From positions 9,936-73,935 of the IMG/VR virus record IMGVR_UViG_3300032040_000005: a DNA stretch of 64,000 nucleotides; one strand, given 5' to 3'. Numbering within the stretch: the first letter of the stretch is position 1; the number at the start of each line of letters is the position of its first letter. Below are positions 3,326 to 52,572 of the stretch, in pieces. This stretch comes from a virus (Duplodnaviria; Caudoviricetes). Both the position numbers and the translations under genes were made by a program. Below the pieces are notes generated by a model. It saw nothing but the letters and a program-made list of their open reading frames with translations. It searched no databases and had not been told where the DNA came from.

Positions 3326-3326
3326 A

Positions 3327-6942: not shown

Positions 6943-6966
6943 GGTCTATCCCCATCCTTCCGTCAA

Positions 6967-7497
6967 TTAAGCTGTAGCAGTGCCTTTGGCCATGGCTTGT
7001 CGTTGAGCCAGATCAGCCAATTCTTGCTTGGTCAATGGCTCCAAGACTTCCACGCTGTACGCACGGATCAGTTTGCTCTCACGGATCTGACGGCCACGTT
7101 CGTCCTTCTTGCTGACAAACACCTGGGTCATCTTCCGTTTAATCATCTTCAAGACGATTTTGGGCACGTGCCATTCCACATCAAACGGCACACACTCTTT
7201 AAAGGTGCCAACCACACGGTTACCGGTGCAGAAGATTTCGCTTGTGTACTCTTTCTTACTGGGGTCCATGCAGGCAATGCGTACACGCACCAGCTCGGAA
7301 CACTCACGCTTCAGTTCCACGCGACTTGCTGTTACCGGCTTTTTTGCCGGTTCTTTGGAAACATCTGTCATTGCTTCGTCCACTTTGGATTGCAGATTTG
7401 CCAGGGTAATATCCTTGCGGTACTTCACTCCCATGACATCAGCCTTGTCCTTCAGTACATCCAGTTCACTCGGTAGTTCTTGCTCAAAATCTTCCAT
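6967..7497 (-). CDS. Conserved N4 gp55-like protein
   Basis: Lies downstream of the capsid gene. MEDF (7497) is the more likely start than 7515. Confidence 0.65.
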   Translation of the reverse strand: MEDFEQELPSELDVLKDKADVMGVKYRKDITLANLQSKVDEAMTDVSKEPAKKPVTASRVELKRECSELVRVRIACMDPSKKEYTSEIFCTGNRVVGTFKECVPFDVEWHVPKIVLKMIKRKMTQVFVSKKDERGRQIRESKLIRAYSVEVLEPLTKQELADLAQRQAMAKGTATA

Positions 7498-7560
7498 TAC
7501 ATTGACTCCAATCATTCAAGAGTTAGTTGGGTGAAGGGCGTTAACCCCTCACCCGTTACA

Positions 7561-8745: not shown

Positions 8746-8760
8746 AAGTTAAACCTTTTC

Positions 8761-9945: not shown

Positions 9946-10286
9946 GCGTCATCTCCATCACGGCGAATGGCATCAATGTCTGCTTCCGATTCAGCAATAG
10001 CTTCTTTAGCCATTTCCGCTTTACGACCAATCTCATTAAGAAACTGGGTAAACGAGCCAATAGCGTCAATGTCCCGCAAGATACGTTCTTGCACTTGTGG
10101 CGATTGTGTATTCCCATCTGCCTTTGCATGAACAAGACGAACGGCTTCAGCACTTAGATACTGATCAACGACCAGCTTTTTAAAGTCACGGTTCTTTTCA
10201 AGACGCCCGAGAGCTTTAGCCAAATCTACCATGTCGTTAAGTTCTTTAATGTTCAGCTCAAGTTCAACAATGTCGTTATGGCTCAT
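9942..10286 (-). CDS. N4 gp58-like protein
   Basis: 114 aa with a RLEKNRDFKKLV motif; synteny. Confidence 0.65.
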   Translation of the reverse strand: MSHNDIVELELNIKELNDMVDLAKALGRLEKNRDFKKLVVDQYLSAEAVRLVHAKADGNTQSPQVQERILRDIDAIGSFTQFLNEIGRKAEMAKEAIAESEADIDAIRRDGDDA

Positions 10287-10371
10287 AATAAATCCAGTTC
10301 CTTTAAATTAAGTACAGTAGTTATCAAGACACGAAGATAATGAATTAAAAAACAAAATATCCATTTATTTA

Positions 10372-12516
10372 TTAACTAACCTTATCAAAGAACGATTTAA
10401 TGTCTTTAGAACGTTCAGCATCACGTTTCAAGTTGTATTCGAGAACCTTAGTTCTACCTTGTGCTTCAGCTTGTTCACCTTGCTTTTCTAAATCACGTTC
10501 TTGCTTAACACCGGACTCTTGCTCTACGTAATCCAGGTTCTTCTGGTCTGTATCACTTTGCTTATTAGCCGCACTAGCTTGACTTGTTTCGGCATCAGCA
10601 TAGTTTTCAACAGTGCGTGATTTGATCTCTTCGATCTCAGCCATTAACTTTTGTACTTCAAGTTCCTGAAGCTTTTGTGCCATCGGATCTGGTTTAGGTT
10701 CAAAGGTTTCAATCTTATGAGCTAGTGTCGGCATCTTACGAAGTGTGCTGATCTCAGCAAGTATGATCTTACGCAACTCGGGATCTTCACTGGGGCCTAA
10801 CGTCTGCAACATGAATGCAAGTTCGCTGGCTTTCTTTTCATCTTCTTCTGCGGTGGATATAGTGATCTTCAGGTCATACTCACCTTTCAGCTCACCTTGC
10901 CTAATAGAAACAAACTCGTCGTTGGTAACACGGACTACTTGTTCTTCTTCCATGAACTCACTGTTCATTGAGATGAACTTCTTACCGATTTCAACAAGTC
11001 CCGCAGACAAACGACGAAGTATCCCCATCTCACGTTTAGAAGACGCTTCGAGTGCACCACGTACACCCGCCGCTACATCACCAAAGGACGCACCCGATAC
11101 ACCCTGGTCATAGGACTTCACACCGGTAAGGGATTCAGCTTCCTGGTTCTGTTGTTGCAGCATGTACATGGCGCTGTTGGGAATCTCAGGGAACGTATGC
11201 ATATACATACCCTGGCGGGGATCTACGTTTTGGTTGAACTCGTAATCCTGACCCTTTTTCCACCGGCGTTTGTTTACAACATCCAAAGCGTCTTTACGCA
11301 TACCCTGCTGACCATTAGCAGAGCGACCCATAATGTCGATCATGCCTCGGGTAACTGCGCCCAATACTTTCTGGTTCTCTTCCAGCAAGGCACCGTCAGG
11401 TTCGCCATGAATAGACTTGCGTTTAGGAAGGTAGGAAACAGTAATGAAAGGAATCTGTTGATCTGGGAAAGGGTTTTCTTCCATGCGGATAAGCGTGTCA
11501 CCTACCCAGGCTGCTACTATAGGCTTAACAACACCACTACCATCAATATCCCAAAATCCCCAATACTCATAAACGACAATCCTCTTACGGGCCTCATCGT
11601 TAAAACGAAAGCTACTGTCATCGTTTGATCCGTGATCTGGTTCTGCCAATGGTGAATGCGACGAAACATTGATCTTATCGAGGTTTGAATATTTTCCATC
11701 TTTCTCAAGCTCCGACATAGAAGATTCAAAGTTGTAAATCACAAACGCTGCTTTCTTAATGTCACCATTACAGGTCGGGTCGATAATTACATTGCGGTAG
11801 TCACACACTTCAACAAACGGTTGGTTCTTAACAGTACGAGTACGGGTTTCTTCTGCGTACCCTGTAATGTCAGGACGAACAGGCTGTCCATTTTCTAACG
11901 TAAGGTCATGAGCATCTCGGAGTTCTTCGGGGACATCGTTGTAATACTCGCTGGGGTTCTCTGCCTTCATCTGAGCCAGTTCTTTGTGCAATGCAGCAGC
12001 TTCTGGATCAACGACAAACGTTACCTGTGGAAATACATCGGTATACTCTTCTTCTTCAAAGTCCCAACCAGTACGGCAAATGATAGTGCCTTCGTCCACA
12101 CCGGTACGCACGTACTCATCAATGAATTTTACTTTATCAATGACAGTACGGAACTGGCTGTTCAACAGTACCTGGTTCTGCCTTGCCCCTTCCTTGTCTT
12201 CCCACGTAACAGGGGCGACATCAAATAGATCATCGGTACTGAGATACGGTTCTGACAACGCAGCGTATCGCCACTCTGCTTGTTTGCGAATCAACTTAGG
12301 AACAAGTTGTGAACGTCCCTCCGGTGATTTAACCTTCGCTGAACCTTCGATATTCAGATTGTCCAAATAGGTCTTTACCTTGGACACTTGAGTATCATGA
12401 TCATTACGTGCTTCTGTTAGGTCTGCTTTCAGATCACGTACTGTGGGTTCCTTCTTCCACTTAGTAAGAGGCTTGTGTTCAATACCATCATCAACCCGCT
12501 GATCATCTTCAGTCAT
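10372..12516 (-). CDS. Portal protein (N4 gp59-like)
   Basis: 714 aa; LTKWKKEPTVRDLK, PKLIRKQAEWRY and EAESLTGVKS motifs; C-terminal coiled coil. Confidence 0.9.
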   Translation of the reverse strand: MTEDDQRVDDGIEHKPLTKWKKEPTVRDLKADLTEARNDHDTQVSKVKTYLDNLNIEGSAKVKSPEGRSQLVPKLIRKQAEWRYAALSEPYLSTDDLFDVAPVTWEDKEGARQNQVLLNSQFRTVIDKVKFIDEYVRTGVDEGTIICRTGWDFEEEEYTDVFPQVTFVVDPEAAALHKELAQMKAENPSEYYNDVPEELRDAHDLTLENGQPVRPDITGYAEETRTRTVKNQPFVEVCDYRNVIIDPTCNGDIKKAAFVIYNFESSMSELEKDGKYSNLDKINVSSHSPLAEPDHGSNDDSSFRFNDEARKRIVVYEYWGFWDIDGSGVVKPIVAAWVGDTLIRMEENPFPDQQIPFITVSYLPKRKSIHGEPDGALLEENQKVLGAVTRGMIDIMGRSANGQQGMRKDALDVVNKRRWKKGQDYEFNQNVDPRQGMYMHTFPEIPNSAMYMLQQQNQEAESLTGVKSYDQGVSGASFGDVAAGVRGALEASSKREMGILRRLSAGLVEIGKKFISMNSEFMEEEQVVRVTNDEFVSIRQGELKGEYDLKITISTAEEDEKKASELAFMLQTLGPSEDPELRKIILAEISTLRKMPTLAHKIETFEPKPDPMAQKLQELEVQKLMAEIEEIKSRTVENYADAETSQASAANKQSDTDQKNLDYVEQESGVKQERDLEKQGEQAEAQGRTKVLEYNLKRDAERSKDIKSFFDKVS

Positions 12517-13950: not shown

Positions 13951-16900
13951 TTAAACAATGTAAGAGGACATGCGGGAATCTTCTTCCTCGTCATCATCCA
14001 CTTCCCATAAACCACTTCCATCGCGGTCTGACAGGTCGCCTGTCTCAGTAGGCTTCCACGCTGTTAGTAGAGGCAACATACTGATTGTGTCTATAAAGTC
14101 ATCGTGTTTGGATCGGAAACCCCCTTTGGACGCCAGCGATATTTCGTTCATGCATTCAATCAGTTCAGGAGAAGCTTTTTTCTCGATAGGGAAAAAGATC
14201 TTGTTCATCTTGAATTGCGGAACAATCACGTTGAAGCGTTCCAGCTTATTGGTGGTGGGACGTAACCCAGGCTTACCGTTGTTGTTCTCGGACACCAGCG
14301 GGAAGTACACGTTGCGACGCATCATTTCATTCATGATCCAGGGTATGAAACCGCCCTGCTGACCACTGACCTCAATACCCACACCCTGGGGCCGGTACTC
14401 CTGAGCCAGTCTGAACAGATCGTTCACGTTCTTGTCCATAAGCTGGCGCTTACAGATCCCATCTACCCACAACCAGTCACCGTTGTTGTTGTAGGCCCAC
14501 ACACTGATCACAGAGTAATCCGACTTCTCGGACTCACTGGTTGCAAAGTCGGTGGTGATGTAGAAGTTGAAGACATTCTTGTTGTTCAGGATGTTGCGGA
14601 GTGAGTACCACATGATCTCGCTGTCTTGAACCAGTCGATCCTCTTCCGACATGATCCGCAGCATAAGCTCCTGGTTAAAGGTCTCAACGCTGCCCTCAAG
14701 CACCGCCATGTCATACGCGGCCTTCACATACTCGTAAGGGAAACGGTCTGGCCAGCTACCCCGGAACTCTTCCTTGGTGCAGGGGAACTGCTCACACACG
14801 GGAAACACGTTGACCTGCCAGGCACCGGACTCAACCGCTTTGTACAACGGATCTTTCGCGTTGAACGCCGTACCGGACCAGATGATCATGTTCAGCGTGG
14901 GATGCAGTGCGTAGGTCACCGCTTTCTTAACCGTGTCCTCTACGGCACCTATGACCGTTGCAGAGCGTGCATCTTCATCCGATATTAAGTCATCCAGCAC
15001 CGCTAACCCTGGCCGTATGCCCATCTCTTTGGCACCACGTACACCGGTATTGTGGGTACGGAAGTATTCCCCGGTAAGGAACTGACGCTCTTCATTATCT
15101 ACCGCAATACACTGACTGGGTTCATCAGCAATGCGTGTGATTGACGCAACCGCTACTTTGTCACCTTTACGATCAAAGCGTTGTCTATCACGCTTACGGG
15201 GTAGACGGAACATGTCTTCATTAAGCCATATCTCCGTACAGAAAGGCTTTTTACACCGTTGTGCGGTGGCACCGAGAGAACGTACTAGACGTTCCGTATC
15301 TGCAAGGAGTCGTGGTGACACACTACAGAAATTGGTGCGACCTGATTTGCATACGGTCCCATCCGTATCCATAAGCCCTTGAAGCAACGCCTGGCGTTGC
15401 TCAATGGAACCACGAAAGTAGACTTCGGGAATGAACTTATCGTTACCGTGTACACCCAGATCCATTGCCTTGAGTGCTGGGCCTAGTCTTCGGATGGATT
15501 GTGTCCACGTATTCGGATTACGCGTGTCAAACCGGCCCTTACCAAACTCGTAAGGGATGTGTTGCTGGTAGGTCGGCAGGTCGTCGATGTGGGTTGTTAA
15601 TTCAACCGAGCATGAAGGCTTCTGAATACGACCGTCGCCAAGAACCACGCCCAATGTATAAGGATCAACTGGTAGCACTTTTTCCGTGTAGTCCAGTGGC
15701 TGAGCATTCTTGACAAAGACCAGACTCTTGCTGGATGTACCACGGTGGCCCAAGTTACCTTTTTTAGTGTGGATCAGTGGTTGCTGTAACAACTCCTTGG
15801 TGGTGAGATTCTTATCTTCCCACCGTACAGTGTTATTGGGATTGGTATTGATCACTACCGAATTGATATGATCTTCGCTGACTTTGATCGAGCGACCATC
15901 TACCAACCGCAGTTCGTACATTGGTTTAAGGAATACACCACTCTTTTGCGTGATTGAGGTTAGTTCACCATCCGCACCAAATATCCGATCACCCACCTGA
16001 CACTCGCCTATCGTGGTAGTACCCATATCGGTGTACAGGACACTATCCAACGATAGAGCTTTTGCTCCGTACCCTTTTACAATGAAGACTTGCCCATCAC
16101 GGTTACGGAACTCCCAACGGGTGTCCGTGAACTTGATCACAGGCAGGTACCTCATCAAGAACTCAGAGTTGTCCCTACGGAACTCCAGGTTCTTACGCAT
16201 GTTCTTCACGCCGTTCTCAATGGAGTCTGACACGTAGATAGCCAGCCGTACTTTACCGAAGCCAGGTATCAAGCTGTACACCGCTATAAACAGGAACAGG
16301 TACTCACCCATGACCGTTGTGTTGTGTGTCACTACGTACTCACCCGCTAAGAACGTATACCCAGGCGAGTTAACGGACAGGCACTGACTCGGTACTTGAG
16401 CGATTGGCTCAATAGCCACCAAGGGCACCCGTAACCCACAACTGAAGTGTTGGCGCTCAGCCTTTCTGGGCAAGCGGAACAACGGTAAGTTCAGGCGTAC
16501 GTTACACCGGTAGGCGTCATTCATAGGGACAACCTGAGCTGTACCACCCAAGGAAAGAACTAGCTCACGCACATCCATCGCTAGGCGATACGAGTTAGAT
16601 GTAAACGCACAACACCCATTCTTATATACCGTACCATCCGTATCCATGAGACCTTGCAAGACTGCAAGACGCTGCTCGACAGAACCTAGCTTATATATCT
16701 CTGGTACGAATTTTTGGTTACCATGGCAAGCCAAGCCTAATGTCTTGAAGTGCTTACCTAGTCCCAGCAGCCCAACCCGCCCAACAGAAGGAAAGCGCTT
16801 GTCCAACAAGATCTTTCCACATTCGGTTGGAATGTGTTTGATCAAATGAGGTAGGTCATCAACATGCCCATGTAGACGGCAAGACCCCACCTTTCGATCC

Positions 16901-17595
16901 ATAGAACCATCGCCAACAGCGAGGCCCAAGGTATAGGGGTCAATTGGAAGCACCTTTTCTGGGTAGTCGACCGGCCCAGCCAAAGGAATCCAGACACGAT
17001 TCTCTTTACCCTTTGGATTCTTAGCGGTTTTGTTCCGACTTGTCGTCAGCTTGAGCTTCAGTAACTCGGACGTTGTCAGATCTCGGCGATCCAGGTAATT
17101 GACTCTTTTTCCTGCCACGCGCTTCTGGCGCTGATGGATCACGGTATTGATATGATCTTCGCTGACCTTCAGCATACGCCCGTCTTCAAGAACCAATTGG
17201 TACATAGGCTTGTTGAAAACAACACTCTTGGCTGTCACATCGGCGGGCGCACCATCCTCACCAAAGACTTGTTCGCCCACTTGAATATTTGCAACCGATT
17301 TCCAACCAGCAGGCGTCGGCAGCATTGTGTCCCGGGCTAGTGCCTTCGCCATGCCACGGTGGCACAGGTTCGCAATCCGTGTACCGCCCTGGTACAGCGT
17401 ATCGAGCATGTAGTAATGAACCACCGGTGTAAGGTGTTCCTCACCTTCGGAACCGTTCACCAACTTAATGAACGTCACAAACTCCAATGCGAAGTCACTG
17501 GGTACATACCCTGGATTGACTTCATAACTCACAGCATTCAGGTAATCCTCTACCCCCATAATACTCTTGAACGCATCCGCTACCGGATCAGTCAT
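13951..17595 (-). CDS. terL: Terminase large subunit (N4 gp68-like) with two inteins; ~536 aa after splicing
   Basis: Removing the inteins restores HRGMAK|TT (Walker A) and GYGAK|TGVRG. Also LAVLDD (Walker B), a nuclease TTDFA motif and HDDFID. Confidence 0.93.
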   Translation of the reverse strand: MTDPVADAFKSIMGVEDYLNAVSYEVNPGYVPSDFALEFVTFIKLVNGSEGEEHLTPVVHYYMLDTLYQGGTRIANLCHRGMAKALARDTMLPTPAGWKSVANIQVGEQVFGEDGAPADVTAKSVVFNKPMYQLVLEDGRMLKVSEDHINTVIHQRQKRVAGKRVNYLDRRDLTTSELLKLKLTTSRNKTAKNPKGKENRVWIPLAGPVDYPEKVLPIDPYTLGLAVGDGSMDRKVGSCRLHGHVDDLPHLIKHIPTECGKILLDKRFPSVGRVGLLGLGKHFKTLGLACHGNQKFVPEIYKLGSVEQRLAVLQGLMDTDGTVYKNGCCAFTSNSYRLAMDVRELVLSLGGTAQVVPMNDAYRCNVRLNLPLFRLPRKAERQHFSCGLRVPLVAIEPIAQVPSQCLSVNSPGYTFLAGEYVVTHNTTVMGEYLFLFIAVYSLIPGFGKVRLAIYVSDSIENGVKNMRKNLEFRRDNSEFLMRYLPVIKFTDTRWEFRNRDGQVFIVKGYGAKALSLDSVLYTDMGTTTIGECQVGDRIFGADGELTSITQKSGVFLKPMYELRLVDGRSIKVSEDHINSVVINTNPNNTVRWEDKNLTTKELLQQPLIHTKKGNLGHRGTSSKSLVFVKNAQPLDYTEKVLPVDPYTLGVVLGDGRIQKPSCSVELTTHIDDLPTYQQHIPYEFGKGRFDTRNPNTWTQSIRRLGPALKAMDLGVHGNDKFIPEVYFRGSIEQRQALLQGLMDTDGTVCKSGRTNFCSVSPRLLADTERLVRSLGATAQRCKKPFCTEIWLNEDMFRLPRKRDRQRFDRKGDKVAVASITRIADEPSQCIAVDNEERQFLTGEYFRTHNTGVRGAKEMGIRPGLAVLDDLISDEDARSATVIGAVEDTVKKAVTYALHPTLNMIIWSGTAFNAKDPLYKAVESGAWQVNVFPVCEQFPCTKEEFRGSWPDRFPYEYVKAAYDMAVLEGSVETFNQELMLRIMSEEDRLVQDSEIMWYSLRNILNNKNVFNFYITTDFATSESEKSDYSVISVWAYNNNGDWLWVDGICKRQLMDKNVNDLFRLAQEYRPQGVGIEVSGQQGGFIPWIMNEMMRRNVYFPLVSENNNGKPGLRPTTNKLERFNVIVPQFKMNKIFFPIEKKASPELIECMNEISLASKGGFRSKHDDFIDTISMLPLLTAWKPTETGDLSDRDGSGLWEVDDDEEEDSRMSSYIV
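15049..16059 (-). mobile_element. Intein 2 (337 aa) with LAGLIDADG endonuclease
   Basis: Begins ALSLD, VSEDHIN, LGVVLGDG and LQGLMDTDG helices, PSQCIAV, ends RTHN before Thr. Confidence 0.9.
16321..17343 (-). mobile_element. Intein 1 (341 aa) with LAGLIDADG endonuclease, inserted in TerL Walker A
   Basis: Begins ALARD, block B VSEDHIN, LGLAVGDG and LQGLMDTDG helices, block F PSQCLSV, ends VTHN before Thr. Confidence 0.9.
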
Positions 17596-41742: not shown

Positions 41743-41987
41743 ATCCAATACTTAATCCCGCCTACGTTCAAATCCCAAAGAAAGAAGCTGCCACCATTTT
41801 AGGCATCAGTGTCTCTGAATTGGATCGTCGTAGAATCAGTGACGACCGCTGCCCGAATGGTTTCAAAGAGCGTGATGATAAAATGGCTCCGGTGAAGTTC
41901 CGACTCTCGGACATCTACACGTACTCCGAAGCCATTATGAACAGTGCTATTCCGGCTACTCAGTTAAAAGGTGCATCGGTCTCTTAG
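41739..41987 (+). CDS. xis: Excisionase / recombination directionality factor (AlpA-like HTH)
   Basis: KKEAATILGISVSELDRRR...CP.G...VKFRLSDI winged HTH; convergent with int and overlapping it by 32 bp. Confidence 0.75.
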   Translation: MNPILNPAYVQIPKKEAATILGISVSELDRRRISDDRCPNGFKERDDKMAPVKFRLSDIYTYSEAIMNSAIPATQLKGASVS

Positions 41988-43185
41988 GCTTACCCTTACC
42001 CGTTTCTAAATAATCCAGATAATCCGCGTACCAACACATCATTTCCCGGCGCTTATCCAAATACTGTGCCTGGTTATATACCCCAGCGTCACCGCCTTCA
42101 ACGTGTGCTAACTGCATCTCTACGTAGTCTTTATCCCAACGGTGTTCACGTAACAACGTGCTGGCTGTGTGCCTTGCACCGTGACCTACAAGCTTGCCTT
42201 TGTACCCGACTAACCGCAGACACTTATTAATCGTGTTCTCGCTCATCGTGGGGTTCTTAGTACCAAAGCCTGGGAACACATACTTACCCCGTCCTGACGT
42301 TTCATGCATGGTTCGCAGTTCAGCCACTGTTTGAGGTGCCAACGGGATAAGGTGATCTCGACGCATCTTCATTTTTGCAGCGGGTATCGTCCATAAGGCG
42401 TTATCCAAATCCATATCAACCCATTCACTAAATCGTGCCATGCCTGGGCGACACGCTGTACGCAGCACCAGGCGTGTCATGGTTAAGGTGATCTGTTTAC
42501 TCGTAGACTTTCTAAGGGCCATAAGGAAAGCCGGCAACTCGTCTTCTAATAGATGAGGGTGCGGCGTTTCCTGATGACCTTGTTGAGCCAGATGACGTAA
42601 CTCACTTGCGGGGTTTACAGTGCAATGGCCTTGAGCCATCGCCAGTGAGAATATTTGATTGATCCAGAGTCTTACTTTACCGGCAATGGCACCGGCACCC
42701 CGGGCTTCCATCTTTGATTGGATCGCCGCACAGTCTAATCGTGTGACTGCATCCAACGCTTTGTGGCCAATGGCCGGATAGATGTCTTTGTTCAAATACA
42801 ACTCATATTGATAAAGGCTACCCGCTACGCGGCCTGCCTTTATCTTACGGTCATACCAGTCTTCAGCGGCTTCTTTAAAAGTCATCTTTTCTTGTATACC
42901 CGAACCCAAGTGTACAAGATCTTCACCGTCTGAGGATTGGCTCAGCAGCTCTTTAGCATTCTCGCGGGCCAACTTACCGGAGACTCGCGGGTATCCGCCC
43001 AGACCTTTCCAGGCCCATTTACCGTTGGGACGCTTATACCGTAAGACCCAGGACTTGCCACCGTTAGTCTTCACACGGAAGTACAAACCTTCGCTGTCAC
43101 GCTCCTGGTAATCCGTGGTGTCTGGCTCTAAGGCGTTGAGAACACTGTCTGCCAGGGGACGCCGCTTAATCGCTGATCGCTTCAT
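41956..43185 (-). CDS. int: Tyrosine integrase, P4 family, with N-terminal arm-binding domain
   Basis: GLYFRV...KSWVLRY arm domain; catalytic R (ACRPG), HGAR, LAH and Y (YNQAQY) all present. Confidence 0.93.
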   Translation of the reverse strand: MKRSAIKRRPLADSVLNALEPDTTDYQERDSEGLYFRVKTNGGKSWVLRYKRPNGKWAWKGLGGYPRVSGKLARENAKELLSQSSDGEDLVHLGSGIQEKMTFKEAAEDWYDRKIKAGRVAGSLYQYELYLNKDIYPAIGHKALDAVTRLDCAAIQSKMEARGAGAIAGKVRLWINQIFSLAMAQGHCTVNPASELRHLAQQGHQETPHPHLLEDELPAFLMALRKSTSKQITLTMTRLVLRTACRPGMARFSEWVDMDLDNALWTIPAAKMKMRRDHLIPLAPQTVAELRTMHETSGRGKYVFPGFGTKNPTMSENTINKCLRLVGYKGKLVGHGARHTASTLLREHRWDKDYVEMQLAHVEGGDAGVYNQAQYLDKRREMMCWYADYLDYLETGKGKPKRPMHLLTE

Positions 43186-43197
43186 GTACCTCTCCTT

Positions 43198-43432
43198 GTA
43201 TACCCGAACCGGAAGTATACACAGAGGTATACACGAAAGGTACTACTGCTGTGGGTAAGCAGGAAGAGGCTTGAGGGCTTGATTAGGGCTTAACGATATG
43301 ATTTAGAAGGGTATTTGTGAGGTCTGAGGAGGTGTGAAAATCTTCCGGTGGTAGCGGCGGGCTAACCCAAACCGCGCTTGTAAAACAGGTGCTTACAACT
43401 CAATAACAGTTCTGTGTACAAGCGTGTGTACA
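43198..43432. promoter_or_regulatory. Putative attP: arm-type repeats flanking a tRNA-3'-like core (43347-43361)
   Basis: GTATACAC at 43215 and 43227; TGTGTACA at 43413 and 43425 (both 12-bp period, roughly inverted relative to each other). Core on the - strand is CCCGCCGCTACCACC. Confidence 0.55.
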
Positions 43433-43475
43433 CGCTTTTCTCTACTAAGATTCTGATATTACGGGTGACCTATAG

Positions 43476-43499
43476 AAAAAGCCCCCAGTAAAGGGGGCT
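43476..43499 (-). terminator. Rho-independent terminator ending the tail/lysis operon
   Basis: On the - strand AGCCCCC-TTTACT-GGGGGC followed by TTTTT. Confidence 0.7.
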
Positions 43500-43536
43500 G
43501 TCTGTGCGAGAAGACTACGTGGGGATAGCCCCACGG

Positions 43537-43938
43537 TCAACCTGGCTTGGCTTTCATCCTGTTCACCACGCCTTCCAGGGCACCGCCACCAAAGTAGAAA
43601 GCAGCCACAAGGGCCACCGGTGTACCGAGTGTCGCGTTGTTTAGTTGGCCTACCTCTTTAGCCGCTTGCGTTAGCTGGGCACCATAGACCGGATCAACCA
43701 TACCTGCTGCCAGCATGAATCCAGCACACAGTACCCAGATGAGTACGAAGGGAATCGCAAGCACCAGCATCAACAGACGCTGTGCAATCTTAAAAGGTTC
43801 GTACCCTTTGAGCAGGCTCAGGAATCCTTTAGACTTTTCCTCATCTGTGTAGAACGCAGCATCGACGCCATTGTAAATACCATCGGCTGCTTTCTTGATG
43901 ACGTTCTCATTACCGAACAGTGTTGCAAATATCCCCAT
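43537..43938 (-). CDS. Putative holin (GTA 3TM-holin-like)
   Basis: FYTDEEK motif, two hydrophobic helices, FYFGG near the C-terminus. Confidence 0.6.
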   Translation of the reverse strand: MGIFATLFGNENVIKKAADGIYNGVDAAFYTDEEKSKGFLSLLKGYEPFKIAQRLLMLVLAIPFVLIWVLCAGFMLAAGMVDPVYGAQLTQAAKEVGQLNNATLGTPVALVAAFYFGGGALEGVVNRMKAKPG

Positions 43939-43955
43939 ACCGTTCTCCTGTTGGT

Positions 43956-44201
43956 TTACTGCAATGCCAGCATTTGCTTGGCATACCGTACATCAGCTTC
44001 AAAGCTCACCAGACAATGATCCATTTGCCAAAAGAATGTTGCGTTAATAATATTCCGTGCTTTATTCCACCCTGGCTTGTGCCGGTTAACGTAACACCGA
44101 GCTGAGACGGTCTGATCGTGATGACCCAACAGGATAAAGAGGTTCACGGTCTGGCTACACCAGGCCGCTACTCGTGAGAGAAAGCCGATCATATCGACCA
44201 A
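43956..44201 (-). CDS. Hypothetical protein
   Basis: 81 aa; DQTVSARCY...FFWQMDHC. Confidence 0.55.
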   Translation of the reverse strand: MVDMIGFLSRVAAWCSQTVNLFILLGHHDQTVSARCYVNRHKPGWNKARNIINATFFWQMDHCLVSFEADVRYAKQMLALQ

Positions 44202-44283
44202 ACCATGGTAGGCAATACAGCGTACATAGTGCCACCAGTTTCGCTAGTTACAGTGTTACAGTTGGATCGGTAAAAGTGGATTT

Positions 44284-44877
44284 TCATAATGCTGACGCCT
44301 GTATGAACAGGTCATCTAGTTGTGTATCTGTCAACCCCAACGCTGCACCTAATAGTGACACTAATTGTTTACCTCTATCCACATACTGAGAGTATTCCCA
44401 TTCAATAGTCGCATTGGTTTTGTCCGGCTCCGTCATAGCTGCTAACGCACCTTCCACATCTTGCAGCAAAGCGTTAACCGCCAAAGCCAGTCTGGCCTGC
44501 CTCATGGTCACCCTGTCAGGTGTTATATTGGTCGGGTAATATGTGAGGTCGGGTACATCGGTATTGACCCAGTAGTCGGCCAGTACTTTTGCCAGTTTCT
44601 TCAGCATTGAATGCTGGGCTTCATTTTCTGGGTCACCCTGTAATGAGGCAATCTCACTACCAAATGTCGGGTAGTGTGTTTTCATAATCTCTTCAATAAT
44701 GGTGTTACGATCCGACAACTTATCAACACGAGCCGTTTGGTACGTATATGCAGTCTCAGCGGTACCCTCTACATTCGTTCGTGACAGCACCTTTTTATTA
44801 AAGTTAATCAAGAGTCTGCGACCCATGACTTGATACGTGTTCAGCTCTACTGGGGATTCTGTCGTTGAGTTAGACAT
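44284..44877 (-). CDS. Two-domain protein; C-terminal half resembles tail-fibre assembly chaperones
   Basis: C-terminal VTMRQARLAL...IEWEYS...LGLTDTQLDDLFIQA; overlaps the RT stop by 8 bp. Confidence 0.55.
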   Translation of the reverse strand: MSNSTTESPVELNTYQVMGRRLLINFNKKVLSRTNVEGTAETAYTYQTARVDKLSDRNTIIEEIMKTHYPTFGSEIASLQGDPENEAQHSMLKKLAKVLADYWVNTDVPDLTYYPTNITPDRVTMRQARLALAVNALLQDVEGALAAMTEPDKTNATIEWEYSQYVDRGKQLVSLLGAALGLTDTQLDDLFIQASAL

Positions 44878-45829
44878 TCATTAGTACCTCTCTTCCTGGT
44901 TGCCAAAGTCCTTTATTGTTTAATGGTTTTATCCACCCCCAATAAGCGGTAATACTCATTATCCATTTAATACGCACAGACTCCAGATATCTATATTTTA
45001 TAGTAGCGCGTAGACGAGTACAGTCGCTGAAAAAGACGTACCCACAAAAATCTAAACCATTGCTGGCCAGGGATTGAATAATCCAAGTGGGTTTAATTAT
45101 AAGTCCTAGTTTATTCACCTGTTGCTCAATTCTTTTTTGTGCTGACCTTAACCATTTTTTACAAGAACCCAATACAATAAGATCATCGCAGTAACGGAAG
45201 TAATACTTCACTTTTAAGTTTTGTTTTGCGTACCAATCCACAGTAGATAAAACCATATTACCCAGCATCTGGGATATGTAATTGCCTATGGGGAGCCCTT
45301 CAACACTTTCAATAATATTATCCAGCAATACGAGAGTACGTGGGCATTTTATATGACGCCGAACGCATAGCTTGCTGATCTGCTGTTTCACCGATGGGTA
45401 GAACTTCTTAATGTCCATTTGCAGATAGTAGGTAGGCCTGCCTTTCCGTATGGCTTTCTGCACACGTCGTCGTGCGTCTGAGGTGCCACGGCCCTTCAGT
45501 GATTGAAAAGTGTCCCTTATCAGTGAACGTTTCCAGATATCACCAACAACTTGCATAATGGCGTGGTGAACAATTCGATCTGGGAAATAAGGCAGTACGT
45601 GTATCACACGAAGCTTACTGCCTTCTACCCGTTCCATAACGCGATACTCGTTGGTTTGATACGTACCATTCATAAGTTGATCGTGTAGCTGCTGGAGGTA
45701 AAACTCCTCGTGCTTATTAACCTCCACCACTTCTTTATAATGGCCCTTACCTTTTGAGGCTTTTTTATGAGCCTCATGTAAATTGTCCATAGATGCGATT
45801 TCATCAAAAAGATTACCGTACCGTTTCAT
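44870..45829 (-). CDS. DGR reverse transcriptase (Brt-like)
   Basis: 319 aa; KGRGT, MDIKKFYPSV, DGR-type LPIGNYISQ (GxxxSQ), RYCDD, GLDFCGY; no maturase or endonuclease domain. Confidence 0.95.
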   Translation of the reverse strand: MKRYGNLFDEIASMDNLHEAHKKASKGKGHYKEVVEVNKHEEFYLQQLHDQLMNGTYQTNEYRVMERVEGSKLRVIHVLPYFPDRIVHHAIMQVVGDIWKRSLIRDTFQSLKGRGTSDARRRVQKAIRKGRPTYYLQMDIKKFYPSVKQQISKLCVRRHIKCPRTLVLLDNIIESVEGLPIGNYISQMLGNMVLSTVDWYAKQNLKVKYYFRYCDDLIVLGSCKKWLRSAQKRIEQQVNKLGLIIKPTWIIQSLASNGLDFCGYVFFSDCTRLRATIKYRYLESVRIKWIMSITAYWGWIKPLNNKGLWQPGREVLMNV

Positions 45830-45944
45830 AGCTATCCTTTAATGCTATACAGCGCCCAAGCGTTTCAGACCAACACGGTTTACTAAGCTTTTGTGGGATG
45901 CGTTTACGCCTTTCGGCGGGATTCTTTGTTTTCCAATATTCTAT

Positions 45945-46060
45945 AGCAAGCTGCCTGGCGATACTCCGATTCCGATTGCCTGAGCCATTATTCACATTGA
46001 CGTAAGAAGGACTGACATTCGTACCATTCGAGGTGTTACCACCTACATGAGCTATCTTCC
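45945..46060 (-). repeat. DGR template repeat (TR), 116 nt
   Basis: Rich in AAT/AAC codons in the VR frame; matches VR at every non-adenine position. Confidence 0.95.
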
Positions 46061-46117
46061 GTGCCTAACAAAGAACCCCTCATTTTAAGTCATTATTCTC
46101 CTTAATTATTTAATAGA

Positions 46118-49100
46118 TTATTGAATTTTGGAAAAAGCAAGCCGCCCGGCGATACCCCGATACCGAAGGCCCGAGCCATCAGTCACACCGACGCAAGAAG
46201 GACCGACATCCGCACCATGCGAGGCGCTACCACCCACAAGAGCCATCCTCCAGCCTGAAGACTGGTAGTAATAATCAGCAAACGCGGTAGATGAATTACC
46301 GCTTGAATCGGTTACAACATCACCGAGGGTATTATGCTGCACATTGCGGATATAACCATTAGCACCTGGTGCAGCTACACCCAGTTGTGTGTACCCGACA
46401 GTGGTATCATCAACGAAGCTGGCGATGTCATTACTGACATACCATACCCGTGCATTGACGTTAAACCCGTCGCAGAATTGCCAAGCGTTACCCCAGAAGT
46501 TTTCGATACCCCGGTAATTCATCCATGCAGTATCTCGTACAGAACTAACCACGCCACCTGAACCATTACCAATAATATTGGATTTACCAGCGACCGAGTG
46601 AGGTGAATCTGTTTGACTGGATGACGAAGCCGGATACCCTGTGCTAACACTGTTGTTACCGGCTGCTAAGAGTGCTTGACCGTCGAACCCACCGTACTCC
46701 ACAAAGAACAGCAGTTTTATCAAGGACCACTGCCAGAACGTCATCTGCGACCAATTGGAGCCCCGGTTACTGGCCAATTGTCGCATCTGTGCGCGGGTCA
46801 CACCAACCATCGGATACTTACCAGATACAGAACCTAAAACATCAGCCGTGTAGTCTACTCTTGAATCATTGTTGTCGAGGTTCAGACCATCAATGTATGT
46901 TAGACCACTGGTGTCATACACGGATGCATGATACGCACCTACATAGATCGCCTGCTTTTCGCTTGATGGGTTGGTGTAATACCACATGTCTACAGCAGGG
47001 TCGCGTTGTAACGTACCACCGATTGCGAATGCAGGGTGCAACACAAAACCTGATCTAGGGTAATCACTGATTTCCCGCTTAACATCACCATTAAATAGTG
47101 TGGATACCCGTACATAACACTTGGGGATTTCAACCATGACCTGACCATCGGTACCATCCAGAACGGCAGCAGTCCCGTCGGCTTTCAGCGTTGAGTCGTT
47201 CAGGCTAAGGTAATAGTTCACCGTGCCATCATCATTCAACAGGCAACGACGCATCCGTTCGTGGATCTGTGTGACACCTGTGGAACCGGCATATCTGCTG
47301 TATACGTCTGAAGTTGGGTCCCAAACCATATTGGCAGAGATTCTTGGTTCATAACGATTATCCCCTACCAGCTGTATAACAGACGCATCCGGATACTTGT
47401 CTGCTGTACCTGATTCAGCTTCAGCAAAGGTGGCTTTCTCAACAGAACCTGCCGCCTCAGTGGTGGCTAAGCCGGCCACTTTAAGCCATGCAGTGCCTGA
47501 GTAGACCCGCACCTCGTTGGCAACCGTATTGAAGTAGAGATCCCCGGGCGTAACATTTACCGTAGGCGCTGACGCCAGTGGCCCATGATATTGGTTCTGA
47601 AACGTGGTCAGTGAGCTTGCGGCATTGGTTGCACTGGTACTTGCGGCAGAGGCCGAGCCAGAAGAGTTACTCGCAGACGTGGCGGCATTACTGGCAGAGG
47701 TACTGGCATTGGATGCAGACCCTCCGGCATTGGTTTCAGACGTTGCCGCGTTGGTTTCGCTGGTAGACGCTGCCGTAGCACTGGCACCACCCTTGGAAGC
47801 ATAGTGCCGGCCCGAGAACTTACCCGTCTCAACGGCAACATCAACAGCCGCATTGGCCCAGTTATCGGCTTTGGTTTCACTGGTGGTTGCGTTGGTTGCA
47901 GAGGTGCTGGCATTAGAGGCTGAAGTAGCTGCGTTAGTTTTGCTTGTCGCAGCGGCTGAGGCTGAACCCGTTGCGTTGGTTTCACTCGTTTTAGAGGCCG
48001 TCTCTGACGCACTGGCCTTGGCTGCGTGATGCAGAGCAGAGAACTTGCCTGTCTCTACAGCGGTGTTTTCCAACGCTTCAGCCCACTGGTTCGCTTTGTT
48101 CTGAGACCCCAGAGCAGCGGTCTCAGAGTTGCCCGCGTTGGTTTCCGAGGTGCCTGCATTACCTTCGGAGATATAAGCTGCACTGGCAGAACCAGAAGCG
48201 TTGGTTTCACTGGTGCTGCTGGCGGTCTGTGATGCCGCTGCTGCGGTCTCACTGGCTTTAGCGGCAGTTGCTGCCGTGGTGGCAACATCTTCCGGTGCCA
48301 CCCAGAAAGAGCCGGAGTAGAACTTCAGGAAATTATCCGTGGTATTGAAATACACCGCACCGGTTACCAAAGCATTACCGTCGTTGTCCACGGTTGGGTC
48401 CGAGGCTTTATCCCCCAGGTACTGATCACCGAACTGATCGAACAGACTCTCAGCACTGTTCTTAGCCGCGACGGCACCGGTCTCTGCCGTCTGTGCAGCG
48501 GTCGCTGAACTGCTGGCCGCACTGGCGCTGCCACTGGCATTGGTTTCGCTGGTCGCAGCATTACCGGCAGATAGGGAAGCTGCTGACTCAGAACCAGACG
48601 CATTGGTCTCCGATAGAGCAGCGGCAGTCTCAGAGCCACTGGCGTTGGTTGCACTGACACCCGCATTGGTCTCGCTCAGCGCCGAAGCAATGGCCGAGTC
48701 CTCTGACTTGATGGCGTGGTGCAAAGAAGAATACTGACCCGTCTCAACGGCCACATCTTCCAGTTCCTCTGCCCACTTCTCTGATTTGTTCTCAGATGCC
48801 AGGGCGCTAGATGCGGAACTATCGGCTGCGGTGCGATCTTGTCCAGTGGCCACCCGATCTGTAGCCGTAGCGTCGGAGTCCTGCTGCGTCACTACTCGGT
48901 CGGCGGCAGTGGCGGTTGCATCATCACCTGTGGCACTCCTGTCTATACCTGTTTGAGCTGCATCAGCAGCCGTATCCAAGGTGTCTTGGTTGGTAGCAAC
49001 TCGATCCAACCCCGTCTGTACTGCATCAGCAGATGTATCAACTCGATCCAAGTTAGTTTGGAAGCGGTCTGCTGCTGTATCCAAGGTATCTTGGTGGGTG

Positions 49101-49756
49101 GCTGCTAAGTCAGCAGCCGTATCTATCGTGTCCTGATTCGTTGCAACGAGGTCAGCTCCTGTCGCCACAACAGCGTTATCAGCATTAGTTTCACTGACCG
49201 CTGACGCATCTTCGGAGGCCTGGGCAGCGACCACATTGGCGTCTGTTGCTGCTTTGTTGGTGGCCACTTCCGCCCGATCCGCTTCAACGGCATCACGAGT
49301 AGCATACAAGGCGTCCAGAGCCTCAGCCGGAACGGTATTACCATCCAATACAAACGACCCTTCTGGTTGATCCAGTTGCACACGAACGGTCTGATCCAGT
49401 ATGTCTACCAAGCTTTGCGCCTCGGTTAAAACACTGATTCGTCCGTTCAGGAGAGTGATTTCTTTCCCGTTAAGCTGACGTCTTAGGTTCAGGTAGTAGT
49501 GGCCTTGGGACAAACCCGCTGTCAGAGTTTTATCCAGAACTATGTAGAAAGTACCCAGGACCGCATCGGCTGGGTAAATCGTAAGTGACGGGATATACAG
49601 TTCAGCGTCTGTATCAACCGTAAGCGGATTACGCTTCAGGGTGACTTCCAGACCCCAGTTGGTAATGTCCGATGGGTTGTTAGCCTCATCGGTTACCGTA
49701 AATCGGGCTGCAAAGTCATCGCCCTGATATACTTTAAAAAGTGTCTGGTCTTTCAT
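46118..49756 (-). CDS. Long tail fibre / receptor-binding protein, DGR target (Mtd-like C-type-lectin C-terminus)
   Basis: N-terminal YQGDDF anchor-type domain, long Ala/Ser/Thr repeats, NYRGIENFWGNAWQFCDG, then VR ALVGG...GRLAF. Confidence 0.9.
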   Translation of the reverse strand: MKDQTLFKVYQGDDFAARFTVTDEANNPSDITNWGLEVTLKRNPLTVDTDAELYIPSLTIYPADAVLGTFYIVLDKTLTAGLSQGHYYLNLRRQLNGKEITLLNGRISVLTEAQSLVDILDQTVRVQLDQPEGSFVLDGNTVPAEALDALYATRDAVEADRAEVATNKAATDANVVAAQASEDASAVSETNADNAVVATGADLVATNQDTIDTAADLAATHQDTLDTAADRFQTNLDRVDTSADAVQTGLDRVATNQDTLDTAADAAQTGIDRSATGDDATATAADRVVTQQDSDATATDRVATGQDRTAADSSASSALASENKSEKWAEELEDVAVETGQYSSLHHAIKSEDSAIASALSETNAGVSATNASGSETAAALSETNASGSESAASLSAGNAATSETNASGSASAASSSATAAQTAETGAVAAKNSAESLFDQFGDQYLGDKASDPTVDNDGNALVTGAVYFNTTDNFLKFYSGSFWVAPEDVATTAATAAKASETAAAASQTASSTSETNASGSASAAYISEGNAGTSETNAGNSETAALGSQNKANQWAEALENTAVETGKFSALHHAAKASASETASKTSETNATGSASAAATSKTNAATSASNASTSATNATTSETKADNWANAAVDVAVETGKFSGRHYASKGGASATAASTSETNAATSETNAGGSASNASTSASNAATSASNSSGSASAASTSATNAASSLTTFQNQYHGPLASAPTVNVTPGDLYFNTVANEVRVYSGTAWLKVAGLATTEAAGSVEKATFAEAESGTADKYPDASVIQLVGDNRYEPRISANMVWDPTSDVYSRYAGSTGVTQIHERMRRCLLNDDGTVNYYLSLNDSTLKADGTAAVLDGTDGQVMVEIPKCYVRVSTLFNGDVKREISDYPRSGFVLHPAFAIGGTLQRDPAVDMWYYTNPSSEKQAIYVGAYHASVYDTSGLTYIDGLNLDNNDSRVDYTADVLGSVSGKYPMVGVTRAQMRQLASNRGSNWSQMTFWQWSLIKLLFFVEYGGFDGQALLAAGNNSVSTGYPASSSSQTDSPHSVAGKSNIIGNGSGGVVSSVRDTAWMNYRGIENFWGNAWQFCDGFNVNARVWYVSNDIASFVDDTTVGYTQLGVAAPGANGYIRNVQHNTLGDVVTDSSGNSSTAFADYYYQSSGWRMALVGGSASHGADVGPSCVGVTDGSGLRYRGIAGRLAFSKIQ
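46136..46251 (-). repeat. DGR variable repeat (VR), 116 nt, at the 3' end of the tail fibre gene
   Basis: 22 mismatches to TR, all at TR adenines (16 to G, 3 to C, 3 to T). Confidence 0.95.
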
Positions 49757-49853
49757 AAAAATACCCCTAACCGTTAATCAACAATCAGGGGTTATGGTAA
49801 AGGAATGGTTTTGGGGTTGCCTATTTAATTTACGGCAACTCGAATACTGCTTT

Positions 49854-50954
49854 CTACAGTATTCGAGTTGCCGTTAGCATTAGGGTGACTGTGCCAGTAT
49901 ACCAAGTGCTACTACTGTTGGTATTGCTAGCAGTTATTTTCATTGTGCCCTGCGTTACTCTCATATTAATTGTCATTATTGGCACAATAACATCTACCGG
50001 TTCTGATGCTCTTATGACTCCTAGTGTACTAGCAGCGGAAAGAATACCGTTAGAATTGGTAATTGTAGCTGTAAAAAGGTAAACACCTTCAGAGGGAATA
50101 TACCCTAACGTCACCGATGAACCACCTCTAAACTCCCATACATTTTTACTGAAATTTTGTGTGTTCTGTATTCCGCTTATAGCCAAGTCCTTGTATGTAT
50201 CTGCAATAGTCTTAGTACCTTTTTTTATTAAACCTCTTCCATTCATTAGACTTAATTGGTAATTACCTGGCGTAGCCACACTATTAATAAACTGTACTCT
50301 CATTCCACCACTTAGCTTTCCTTGGTAATCAATCGAATTCATTAACTCCCCAAAACACAGAAAAGGTACACTACTCAATTCAACACCACCAACATTAAAA
50401 GTATTTTTTGTTATCTCAATACTTGTTCTTGAAAACCTAAAACTATCTAGAGTATCTACACCTTTAATATCTACATCAAAGGCCACAAAGTATAAGGAAT
50501 TCATTGGGTTTTGACTCCGTATCCCCAACTGCCTTGTACTAGGTAACCAGTTATTTTGTCTGCTTCTACCATCAGAGTATACAAAAGTACCTGTAGTCAG
50601 TAGACCTCCGTAGCTCTGGTCTACTTCTACAGCCCTATTCATTTGGATAGTGTCATTTACAAAAGCAATAAAAGTACGTCGGTTCCCTGTCGCACTCCCA
50701 AATAGGTAATTTTTAAGTAGAGTCATTGTTGGGGAATTGCTAAGTGTAATTGCGATTTCATACATTCCGTCACTGCCATGGGTGTATGCGTATTCGCTTG
50801 GGTCAGGGTCAAATACCTGAAATCCTGTATAGTTTATATCGCTGTGAAGGACTGTATTAGTTGTAGGCTGACCTTTAATTATTGATAGGTCAGTGTATCC
50901 CCGAGTTAAATGCAAAAGTGGTTTACCATTTTCTTTACCAATAAAAATACTCAT
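49854..50954 (-). CDS. AT-rich putative tail/receptor-binding protein
   Basis: 366 aa, beta-rich, located between two tail genes. Confidence 0.5.
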   Translation of the reverse strand: MSIFIGKENGKPLLHLTRGYTDLSIIKGQPTTNTVLHSDINYTGFQVFDPDPSEYAYTHGSDGMYEIAITLSNSPTMTLLKNYLFGSATGNRRTFIAFVNDTIQMNRAVEVDQSYGGLLTTGTFVYSDGRSRQNNWLPSTRQLGIRSQNPMNSLYFVAFDVDIKGVDTLDSFRFSRTSIEITKNTFNVGGVELSSVPFLCFGELMNSIDYQGKLSGGMRVQFINSVATPGNYQLSLMNGRGLIKKGTKTIADTYKDLAISGIQNTQNFSKNVWEFRGGSSVTLGYIPSEGVYLFTATITNSNGILSAASTLGVIRASEPVDVIVPIMTINMRVTQGTMKITASNTNSSSTWYTGTVTLMLTATRIL

Positions 50955-50964
50955 AAATTAGCTC

Positions 50965-52572
50965 CTAGCCTATATAGATGAACTTATTATCTAGGTCCAC
51001 CACAAAGTCCCCAGAAGCAGATGACATTTTTCCCGCAGTAACCTCACCTAAATCGGCTGTAATTGCAGCCAATGCCGTGACGTTTACCTCATCTGCTATT
51101 ATTTTTTTACCTCTGAAATTCTCAGCGGTAAGGTCAAACACAACTGCTTTGTTCATGAAGACTTCGCCATTCGCAACAATAAAGGGGTATGTTTTACTGC
51201 CTAGCTTACCAATCCAGAATCTATCAACATCAAAGCCAGCTTCAACGGTGCCTGTGCCACTGTCCGTGGCCAACCCAAAACCACCTACAAGCGTATTGCC
51301 ATTAATGTCCACCTGTACCTTCACGGTGTACTCAGCGCTCAGGACATCTAACGCATCCTTGTAGCTCACCATCCGTTGCTCAACGTTGGCTGTACCACCC
51401 TCACCATCGACAATCTGTACACCCTTCACCACTTCAGCGACAGAAGACATACCGAGCCAAGTGCCGCCACCTGCGGTACACAGTGCCCGTGTGTTCTTTG
51501 CAGCGTCAGGGTGTCCGTCGATCATGCAGAAACCGACCTGGGTGTTGCTGAAGTCCTGTACTGTGCCTGCCACCGTGTTACCGATGTACATATCCATAAG
51601 GGACCATAAATCACCGTCCCATACGTAACCCTGGTCTCCATCAGCAGAGTCAAACCAGACATCATCAAGGTTCTGGGCAATAGGGGCACCCACCTGACGA
51701 AACACGTTCAACCCTTGTTGAGCCTTCTCCACGTCCCAGGCATTACCACTCCAGCGGTACAACGTATTACCGTCATCAATGTCTACCCACAGATCATTCC
51801 GGTAAGTTGTAGAATCCGGTGGCGGTGTCGTCTGGAAAAACACCTGAGCCTTACGACCTACAGACGCTTCCAATGTGTCTATGCTTTGAGCCATAGCCGT
51901 ATCAGCATTAGCACGTGCAATCACTTCTTGCGTGATCAGCGCCATGCTCTGGTCAGCGACAGCACCTACCACATTGATTTGCTGGATCTGTGCTGAATCA
52001 CTTGTTTCTAAACGTGCAACCTCATTAACAAGAACCGTACCTACACCGTCTACCTGTGTCTGGAAATCTGCCAGGGCAATCAACAACTCTTCATATTGAA
52101 CTTGAGAATTAGAGATATTGGTTAACAGGTCTGCACGTATGGACTCAATTCTATTTATTTCTGAACTCAGTGATGTTGCCAGTTGGCCTTGTGAGATCTG
52201 ACCACTTAACATCGCTATAGTTTGTTCAATAGTAGGACGTGCCATAGCAGAAGCAGGCCCAGTCAAATCACCTACCGTACCGTTCACAGATACAATCTCG
52301 ATCCAGTAGTAATAACGGATGGCCGCACTTGGGTCTATTCTGTCGTAATGGATTTCACCCGTAACCGTCTTTAGTTTTACTTTAGTTAATGGATCAGCAT
52401 TACTACTACGATATAGCAGTACATGCGAGACTGCCTCCGGCAGTAATTGTGGATATGTCCAAAATACATCTATACCTCCAAACGCAGGTACAGCTTGTAA
52501 TATTGAGTTATTTAAATCAGGATCACCAGGCTTCGGGAAGTTACCGAAACCTGTTCCGCACGAATCAGCCAT
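50965..52572 (-). CDS. Tail tip / central fibre protein (DUF1983-like C-terminus)
   Basis: Fn3-like N-terminus, coiled coil, YTVKVQ...VGGFGL...FDVDRFWIG...PFIVANGEVFMN. Confidence 0.7.
   Translation of the reverse strand: MADSCGTGFGNFPKPGDPDLNNSILQAVPAFGGIDVFWTYPQLLPEAVSHVLLYRSSNADPLTKVKLKTVTGEIHYDRIDPSAAIRYYYWIEIVSVNGTVGDLTGPASAMARPTIEQTIAMLSGQISQGQLATSLSSEINRIESIRADLLTNISNSQVQYEELLIALADFQTQVDGVGTVLVNEVARLETSDSAQIQQINVVGAVADQSMALITQEVIARANADTAMAQSIDTLEASVGRKAQVFFQTTPPPDSTTYRNDLWVDIDDGNTLYRWSGNAWDVEKAQQGLNVFRQVGAPIAQNLDDVWFDSADGDQGYVWDGDLWSLMDMYIGNTVAGTVQDFSNTQVGFCMIDGHPDAAKNTRALCTAGGGTWLGMSSVAEVVKGVQIVDGEGGTANVEQRMVSYKDALDVLSAEYTVKVQVDINGNTLVGGFGLATDSGTGTVEAGFDVDRFWIGKLGSKTYPFIVANGEVFMNKAVVFDLTAENFRGKKIIADEVNVTALAAITADLGEVTAGKMSSASGDFVVDLDNKFIYIG

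Follow-up and report, generated by a model that had tools for sequence, protein, structure and literature searches.

The DNA analysed here (the window, 64,000 nt) comprises bases 9936-73935 of the 73,935-bp IMG/VR record IMGVR_UViG_3300032040_000005, which derives from brine metagenomes. A diversity-generating retroelement (DGR) of functional type was found at the phage's native long-tail-fibre locus. The element is arranged in the order target gene, template repeat (TR) and reverse transcriptase (RT) and has no Avd, and its carrier is a complete N4-like phage of an integrase-bearing lineage. A probability of about 85% was assigned to this reading. Among systems of targeted hypermutation DGRs are the best known, and those of phages that act on fibre tips are textbook knowledge. 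The element adds a well-characterised case to the phage DGRs without Avd; it occurs in a host lineage that is rare but has been reported before.

A direct repeat of 116 nt with 81% identity was recovered at exactly the positions given in an initial annotation of the window (Table 1). Both copies are read on the minus (coding) strand, the TR from 46060 to 45945 and the variable repeat (VR) from 46251 to 46136. They differ at 22 of the 116 positions, and every one of these differences (22/22) falls on a TR adenine. Nine of the 31 TR adenines are unchanged in the VR, the others being replaced by G (16), T (3) or C (3); no mismatch was found at the non-adenine positions of the TR across the 116 nt. 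The adenine-only pattern described in the initial annotation was reproduced in full, with a hypergeometric chance of 7e-17 for 22 mismatches all lying on 31 adenines among 116 positions. In the VR reading frame, codon positions 1 and 2 hold 28 of the 31 TR adenines. The TR frame contains eight AAY codons, and a single variable codon is mutable to a stop. With 21 variable codons (residues 1169-1207), the theoretical diversity amounts to about 3e16 proteins. The VR lies, as had been proposed, at the C-terminus of the 1212-aa fibre, at the 3' end of an open reading frame (ORF) with a C-type-lectin scaffold. The TR follows directly after the target at a distance of 75 nt. Between the fibre stop and the TR (46085-46103, minus strand), a strong Shine-Dalgarno-like AAGGAG is followed by the two-codon ORF ATG ACT TAA.

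The RT carries the motifs IGNYISQ and YCDD, which align to IGSLTSQ and YMDD of the bRT of phage BPP-1 and conform to the DGR-clade pattern (IGxxxSQ, YxDD). Its best match in the PDB was BPP-1 bRT (8ub7, E 3.8e-34), the closest solved relative, and the DGR-type RT of the initial annotation was thereby corroborated. All close relatives of the RT adjoin TR/VR pairs with mismatches at adenines only. Other classes of RT were rejected on their scores: 88 bits for group II intron RTs (TIGR04416, cut-off 300), 59 bits for the defence-associated RT Drt3a (cut-off 200) and 52 bits for the retron RT St85 (cut-off 235). The best PADLOC model was that of a generic RT.

The target fibre consists of an N-terminal anchor (residues 4-110), a heptad-rich shaft and a C-terminal tip with a predicted lectin fold. 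In G018, the nearest complete N4-like relative, the counterpart of residues 4-109 is encoded at the same site by an ORF of its own (117 aa). Nucleotide homology of the tip to two siphovirus contigs of IMG/VR, L001 and L002, begins at position 47284, with an amino acid identity of 75%. The C-terminal 410 aa matched no Pfam family; the family of this tip comprises at least 912 proteins, mostly metagenomic. An AlphaFold (AF2) model built on 41 family members reached a predicted local distance difference test score (pLDDT) of 90.3 and a predicted template modelling score (pTM) of 0.92. When this model was compared with the PDB by Foldseek, TaqVP (5vf4) ranked first (E 4.8e-11, template modelling (TM) score 0.44-0.50), followed by five variants of BPP-1 Mtd (1yu0-1yu4) and then by FGE and EgtB. 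TaqVP was also the sole profile-sequence match of the tip in the PDB, with the VR motif aligned. Since TaqVP and Mtd were the top structural matches, the modelled tip is identified as a DGR-type C-type-lectin domain.

The carrier is a complete N4-like phage. Its genome of 73,935 bp has a 127-bp terminal repeat and contains a virion RNA polymerase (vRNAP) ORF of 3699 aa at genome positions 643-11739, the core of which is 44% identical to a 3588-aa ORF of G018. Genes for N4-type RNAPII (phrog_2051/2166), portal (phrog_1216) and capsid (phrog_1357) were found, and the portal is 57% identical to those of the Schitoviridae isolates Escherichia phage Pollock and Salmonella FSL SP-058. The full set of Schitoviridae features (giant vRNAP; RNAPII, portal and capsid genes; a genome of about 70-75 kb) is present, so that the initial assignment to the N4-like phages stands.

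The minus-strand block 41956-52572 is the counterpart of the fibre island that LUZ7-type phages carry in reverse orientation. The block is headed by a 535-aa protein that matches LUZ7 gp59 at the same genomic position, and the flanks encoding holin and primase/exonuclease are conserved. In G018 the island consists of a 583-aa fibre, ORFs of 435 and 117 aa, a 1082-aa fibre, a 135-aa ORF and the integrase. The 135-aa ORF matches a 133-aa ORF of the window, and the 117-aa ORF matches the N-terminus of the 1212-aa fibre. The integrase is 75% identical at the amino acid level and takes the same position in G018 (L096, 17144-18388), which has no RT. Integrases were also present in the N4-like genomes G004, G008 and G010, of which G008 is classed as a provirus by IMG/VR. 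Because the enzyme occurs in RT-less G018 and in these further genomes, it is regarded as native to the N4-like backbone and the DGR as an addition. The shared integrases point to an integrase-bearing N4-like subclade. A survey of 48 N4-like IMG/VR relatives, run with a positive control, found no RT in any of them; since most of these records are fragments and near-identical ones may be missing from the set, the result supports the rarity of DGRs in this lineage, not uniqueness. The novelty implied by the initial annotation was overstated: the closest N4-like relatives share the integrase, and a DGR in an N4-like phage had already been reported (PMC10654107), so that this finding as such is not new.

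The DGR was compared with related cassettes in other phages. The homology of L001 and L002 to the window is confined to 47284-44822, where the nucleotide identity is 82%; this stretch takes in the fibre tip, both repeats (VR and TR), the RT and the beginning of the following gene. Both contigs bear the marks of siphoviruses (Dit, a J-like fibre, DNA polymerase and deazaguanine genes). More distant cassettes, each with an adenine-only TR/VR pair, were found in the myovirus-like contig L006 (RT 54% identical), the lambda-like contig L008 (RT 45%) and the dwarf myovirus Yersinia phage fEV-1 (RT 45%). Mismatches were confined to TR adenines in all six cassettes of this RT clade. A Megablast search of the locus against GenBank phages returned no match. 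The siphovirus copy of L001/L002 type co-occurs in the same brine/aquatic metagenomes (runs X1-X6), where it is covered about fourfold more deeply than the N4-like phage; this makes exchange within one community plausible. Judged from these sequence comparisons, the cassette (fibre tip, VR, TR, RT and small downstream gene) was gained by horizontal exchange with unrelated tailed phages of the same brine habitat.

An assembly artefact, by which the cassette of the abundant siphovirus had been joined to the N4-like genome, was considered very improbable. In its favour, an 82%-identical and roughly fourfold deeper cassette occurs in the same runs, and the assembly graphs break within the shared region. 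Moreover, contig L010 of the Joint Genome Institute (JGI) begins next to the VR. This contig (JGI 3300034171, 74,088 bp) is an independent, circularly permuted assembly of the same phage, and its end at window position 46366, just upstream of the VR, would fit difficulties in resolving the assembly graph at the VR/TR repeat or within the shared cassette. In three runs (X1, X3 and X6), however, the junctions at either end of the cassette (44883 and 47284) were crossed by contigs identical to the window. They covered 44000-45100 and 47195-48000, the latter inside a 53.8-kb contig in X1 and X6. The depth of the window-identical pieces equalled that of the N4 backbone in all four runs (X1, X3, X4 and X6); it was 67-74 in X1 and 229-257 in X6, unlike that of the siphovirus copy with 269-289 or 925-987. 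The window copy is 18% diverged from L001 throughout. Two JGI assemblies were 100% identical to the window over 13.3 and 12.1 kb, and a 22.7-kb JGI contig reaching from thymidylate synthase to the integrase was 100% identical as well.

The diverged 3' flanks of the two repeats had been interpreted as the initiation of mutagenic homing site (IMH) and its counterpart IMH*. The divergence was confirmed, with homology stopping after ...GCTTGCT in both copies; the interpretation was not retained, as this point is merely the end of homology. The last 14 nt inside the repeat are a better candidate for IMH/IMH*. In the window they read CCGGGCGGCTTGCT in the VR and CCAGGCAGCTTGCT in the TR. The VRs of the window and of L001 both end in CCGGGCGGCTTGCT, and the corresponding TRs contain A, reading CCAGGCAGC... 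and CCAGGCAAC... At the terminal TR-adenine positions of the window, L001, L008 and fEV-1, the VR has G in 10 of 10 cases, or in 8 of 8 if the window and L001 are taken as one lineage; in the VR bodies of the same cassettes, A>G was found at 54%. BPP-1 has a GC-rich IMH as opposed to its IMH*, and the GC-rich VR end of the window seems to resemble it. In the spacer between TR and RT, a stem motif is common to the window, L001, fEV-1 and L008, with one compensatory change from A-U to G-C in fEV-1. Folding of TR plus spacer was no better than that of shuffled sequences.

Several results weigh against a functional element. A search of the whole genome for Avd (PF05635) gave no match at E values up to 10. 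No hairpin or cruciform was found 3' of the VR, where 101 nt folded at -4.6 kcal/mol (z +1.45). The assignment of the IMH draws on only eight independent positions. RNAalifold gave no consensus structure for the TR-RT spacers of the six cassettes, and the RNA structure of the spacer is weakly supported. In an RT-profile scan of bacterial genomes, the relatives found were at most 52% identical and of mixed affiliation, mainly Bacteroidota, and no host could be named from them. Finally, the VR consensus did not vary among four runs, each from a different study (2019-2024 releases), and two JGI assemblies. The comparison was made between contigs, in which minor variants are invisible, so that an unchanged consensus says little about activity.

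The constant VR and the missing Avd would both be expected of a relic, in which the fibre had been diversified in the past, the VR is now fixed and the RT no longer homes. This is unlikely. The ORF of the RT is intact with its catalytic motifs and shows a ratio of nonsynonymous to synonymous substitutions (dN/dS) of 0.08 relative to the L001 copy, the TR is intact as well, and a process of low frequency that is not under selection should leave the consensus unchanged. Six differences between the TRs of the window and L001 concern bases that are not A in either, and all six are mirrored in the cognate VRs; TR-to-VR copying has therefore occurred after the split of these two cassettes. L001 and L002, which stem from two metagenomes, agree over 15,344 nt (99.987% identity) except at two sites, both of which lie in the VR opposite adenines of the TR. 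At the level of sequence, the cassette family appears to be active in nature, and the DGR of this phage is very probably active at present.

The RT gene is followed by a gene for an acidic 197-aa protein, the N-domain of which (about residues 1-105; 44563-44877) is a candidate accessory linked to the RT. Homologues are encoded directly after the RT in L001 (44% identity), L006, L008, fEV-1 (g30), L103 and L104. A profile search with the N-domain retrieved 233 clusters, mostly of 100-110-aa proteins. Two of four distant members examined lay directly after an RVT_1 gene, the other two at a contig end where the upstream region is absent; the domain of about 100 aa stands directly after an RT in seven of seven informative contexts. 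A model of the N-domain (pLDDT 93.4) consists of four strands and three helices (alpha/beta). Foldseek against the PDB gave no convincing match (best E 0.04, TM 0.2), and VIA-align in wide mode gave a best Z of 5.1 with helices only; no fold was assigned. The domain matched no family in Pfam, NCBIfam, PADLOC or PHROGs, and among the ESM Atlas features only unnamed viral clusters below 0.9 were obtained. Avd is a basic four-helix bundle that is required in BPP-1. An identification of the N-domain as Avd was rejected, as the domain is acidic and of alpha/beta type. The neighbouring small ORFs matched neither Avd nor any other family in Pfam or NCBIfam. The C-domain of the 197-aa protein (residues 113-196; 44284-44562) belongs to the widespread viral family phrog_6034 of unassigned function, whose members usually occur on their own, at a length of about 130 aa; in the window it is joined to the RT-linked N-domain.

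The chance is close to even that the protein of about 100 aa is a tail-fibre assembly or chaperone protein, travelling with the fibre tip, in which case it would be no DGR factor and the RT would work alone. Genes for fibre chaperones normally sit just after fibre genes in phage tail-fibre modules, and the domain was seen only alongside this fibre-tip family. The crAss-like phage cr52_1 has no such gene despite an RT that is 42% and a tip that is 23% identical. DGRs of the Avd-less target-TR-RT type, without an accessory gene, account for 29% of the set of Wu et al. (2018), in which a whole lineage is without Avd; how Avd-less DGRs work was left open in that study (PMC5758913). Against a chaperone, the ORF overlaps the RT stop codon in every case and never the fibre stop, and the gene has been kept beside the RT in siphovirus, myovirus and podovirus backbones. 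We tentatively suggest, as a possibility of somewhat doubtful standing, that the protein, which is translationally coupled to the RT, could be an undescribed accessory subunit that takes the place of Avd in a large clade of phage DGRs lacking it. If so, the self-contained cassette of lectin tip, TR, RT and accessory would be a plug-in module for receptor switching that passes between siphoviruses, myoviruses and N4-like podoviruses.

The DGR of BPP-1 (mtd-avd-TR-brt) resembles the element in its adenine-specific TR/VR mismatches, in the position of the VR at the 3' end of a receptor-binding fibre gene with C-type-lectin fold, and in its RT and Mtd, both among the nearest structural relatives given above. 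It differs by the presence of avd and of a hairpin downstream of the VR. The RTs are only about one-third identical, the TR of the window stands 75 nt after the target, another small acidic protein follows the RT, and the carrier is an N4-like podovirus. The BPP-1 retrohoming signature proposed initially is thus upheld as far as a real DGR (RT, TR, VR and adenine-only differences) on the fibre C-terminus is concerned, but not for the accessories. A classification as a BPP-1-type DGR with Avd was rejected, both the avd gene and the 3' hairpin being absent.

The element shares the order target-TR-RT without Avd with the DGRs of Architecture A / Lineage 3 (PMC5758913). The RTs of crAss-like phage DGRs are 39-43% identical to that of the window, and its genomic RT relatives belong mostly to Bacteroidota and other anaerobes. 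The subclade of the window (RT at least 44% identical) differs in the conserved gene of about 100 aa overlapping the RT stop, which is lacking in cr52_1. The protein encoded by this gene might be the acidic CH1 accessory of Lineage 3a (PMC5758913). TaqVP of Thermus aquaticus (PDB 5VF4), the closest solved structure to the fibre tip, is only 16% identical and is a protein of cellular origin rather than a phage fibre. Yersinia phage fEV-1 (LT992259) has the same arrangement of fibre (g27), RT (g29) and g30, with a tip of 44% identity, a homologous N-domain in g30 and a TR/VR pair of 109 nt with adenine-only mismatches; it differs as a dwarf myovirus of 38.6 kb. Its full DGR extends over 3919-7556 (L004), and the small annotated g28 overlaps the TR. 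The main text of the paper describing fEV-1 does not mention an RT or DGR.

Four N4-like uncultivated virus genomes (UViGs) of the proposed subfamily SF8 have been reported with an adjacent integrase and DGR (mSystems 2023, PMC10654107), one of them from a non-marine saline habitat. They resemble the window genome as N4-like IMG/VR genomes with integrase and DGR in one island. The main text of that study gives gene presence only and does not describe TR/VR, target, cassette origin or activity. The window genome may be one of these four UViGs or a close relative. No other description of a DGR in N4-like phages was found in the literature searched.

By the mechanism proposed here, the fibre operon would be transcribed through TR and RT, and the RT would copy the TR RNA into complementary DNA (cDNA), misincorporating opposite adenines. 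The cDNA would replace the VR, with the GC-rich final 14 nt at the 3' end as its probable anchor. Up to 21 codons would be recoded on the ligand-binding face of the C-type-lectin tip, by which, we propose, the phage can change its receptor specificity. Receptor switching is put forward here as something we infer, since the VR consensus was identical in every sample examined. The locus offers a clean natural example of a complete DGR cassette and receptor-binding domain moved between co-occurring phages of different morphotypes. The conserved protein coupled to the RT gives a testable candidate answer to how DGRs function without Avd, and compact cassettes of this Avd-less kind are also attractive as parts for engineering targeted mutagenesis. 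Worth following up are the transfer of the cassette between morphotypes and the family of the RT-coupled protein.

Table 1. Features of the DGR locus and the surrounding fibre island, in window coordinates.
Feature	Position	Strand	Remarks
Tyrosine integrase	41956..43185	-	Pfam Phage_integrase, Arm-DNA-bind_3; backbone context, outside the cassette
Terminator-like hairpin	43480..43499	-	7-bp stem with 6 GC pairs, T tract
197-aa acidic protein	44284..44877	-	pI 4.8; 8-nt overlap with the RT stop
DGR reverse transcriptase, 319 aa	44870..45829	-	Pfam RVT_1; phrog_1423, E 2e-93
TR-RT spacer of the presumed DGR RNA	45830..45944	-	conserved stem 45855-45897 (CCCACAA[A/G]AGC ... GCT[T/C]GGG)
TR	45945..46060	-	31 adenines; last 14 nt (45945-45958) are the candidate IMH*
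DGR target, long tail fibre, 1212 aa	46118..49756	-	ORF; PHROG tail and tail-fibre families
Cassette-borne C-terminal receptor-binding domain, about residues 807-1212	46118..47284	-	predicted DGR-type C-type-lectin / FGE-like fold
VR	46136..46251	-	encodes fibre residues 1169-1207, within the last 45 codons of the ORF
Candidate IMH, GC-rich last 14 nt of the VR (CCGGGCGGCTTGCT)	46136..46149	-	conserved in the VRs of the window and L001
N4-type tail fibre/adaptor, 535 aa	50965..52572	-	heads the fibre island; 38-42% identical to the fibre of LUZ7 and LIT1-type Schitoviridae

The transcription unit closed by the hairpin comprises the fibre, TR and RT and the ORFs of 197, 81 and 133 aa. Sigma-70-like sites were not more frequent than expected by chance.

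Two carriers of the RT clade with distant N4-type portals were noted, G050 (111 kb) and G066 (a fragment). The 111.4-kb phage IMGVR_UViG_3300023238_000006 combines an N4-type portal of 37% identity with a DGR of this RT clade; a vRNAP-like match in it was weak and lay in a 1866-aa ORF. The large terminase of the window (13951-17595, minus strand) measures 1214 aa, about twice the usual size. Matches to LAGLIDADG and Hint/homing-endonuclease families lie between its terminase segments, and the protein probably holds one or two inteins.

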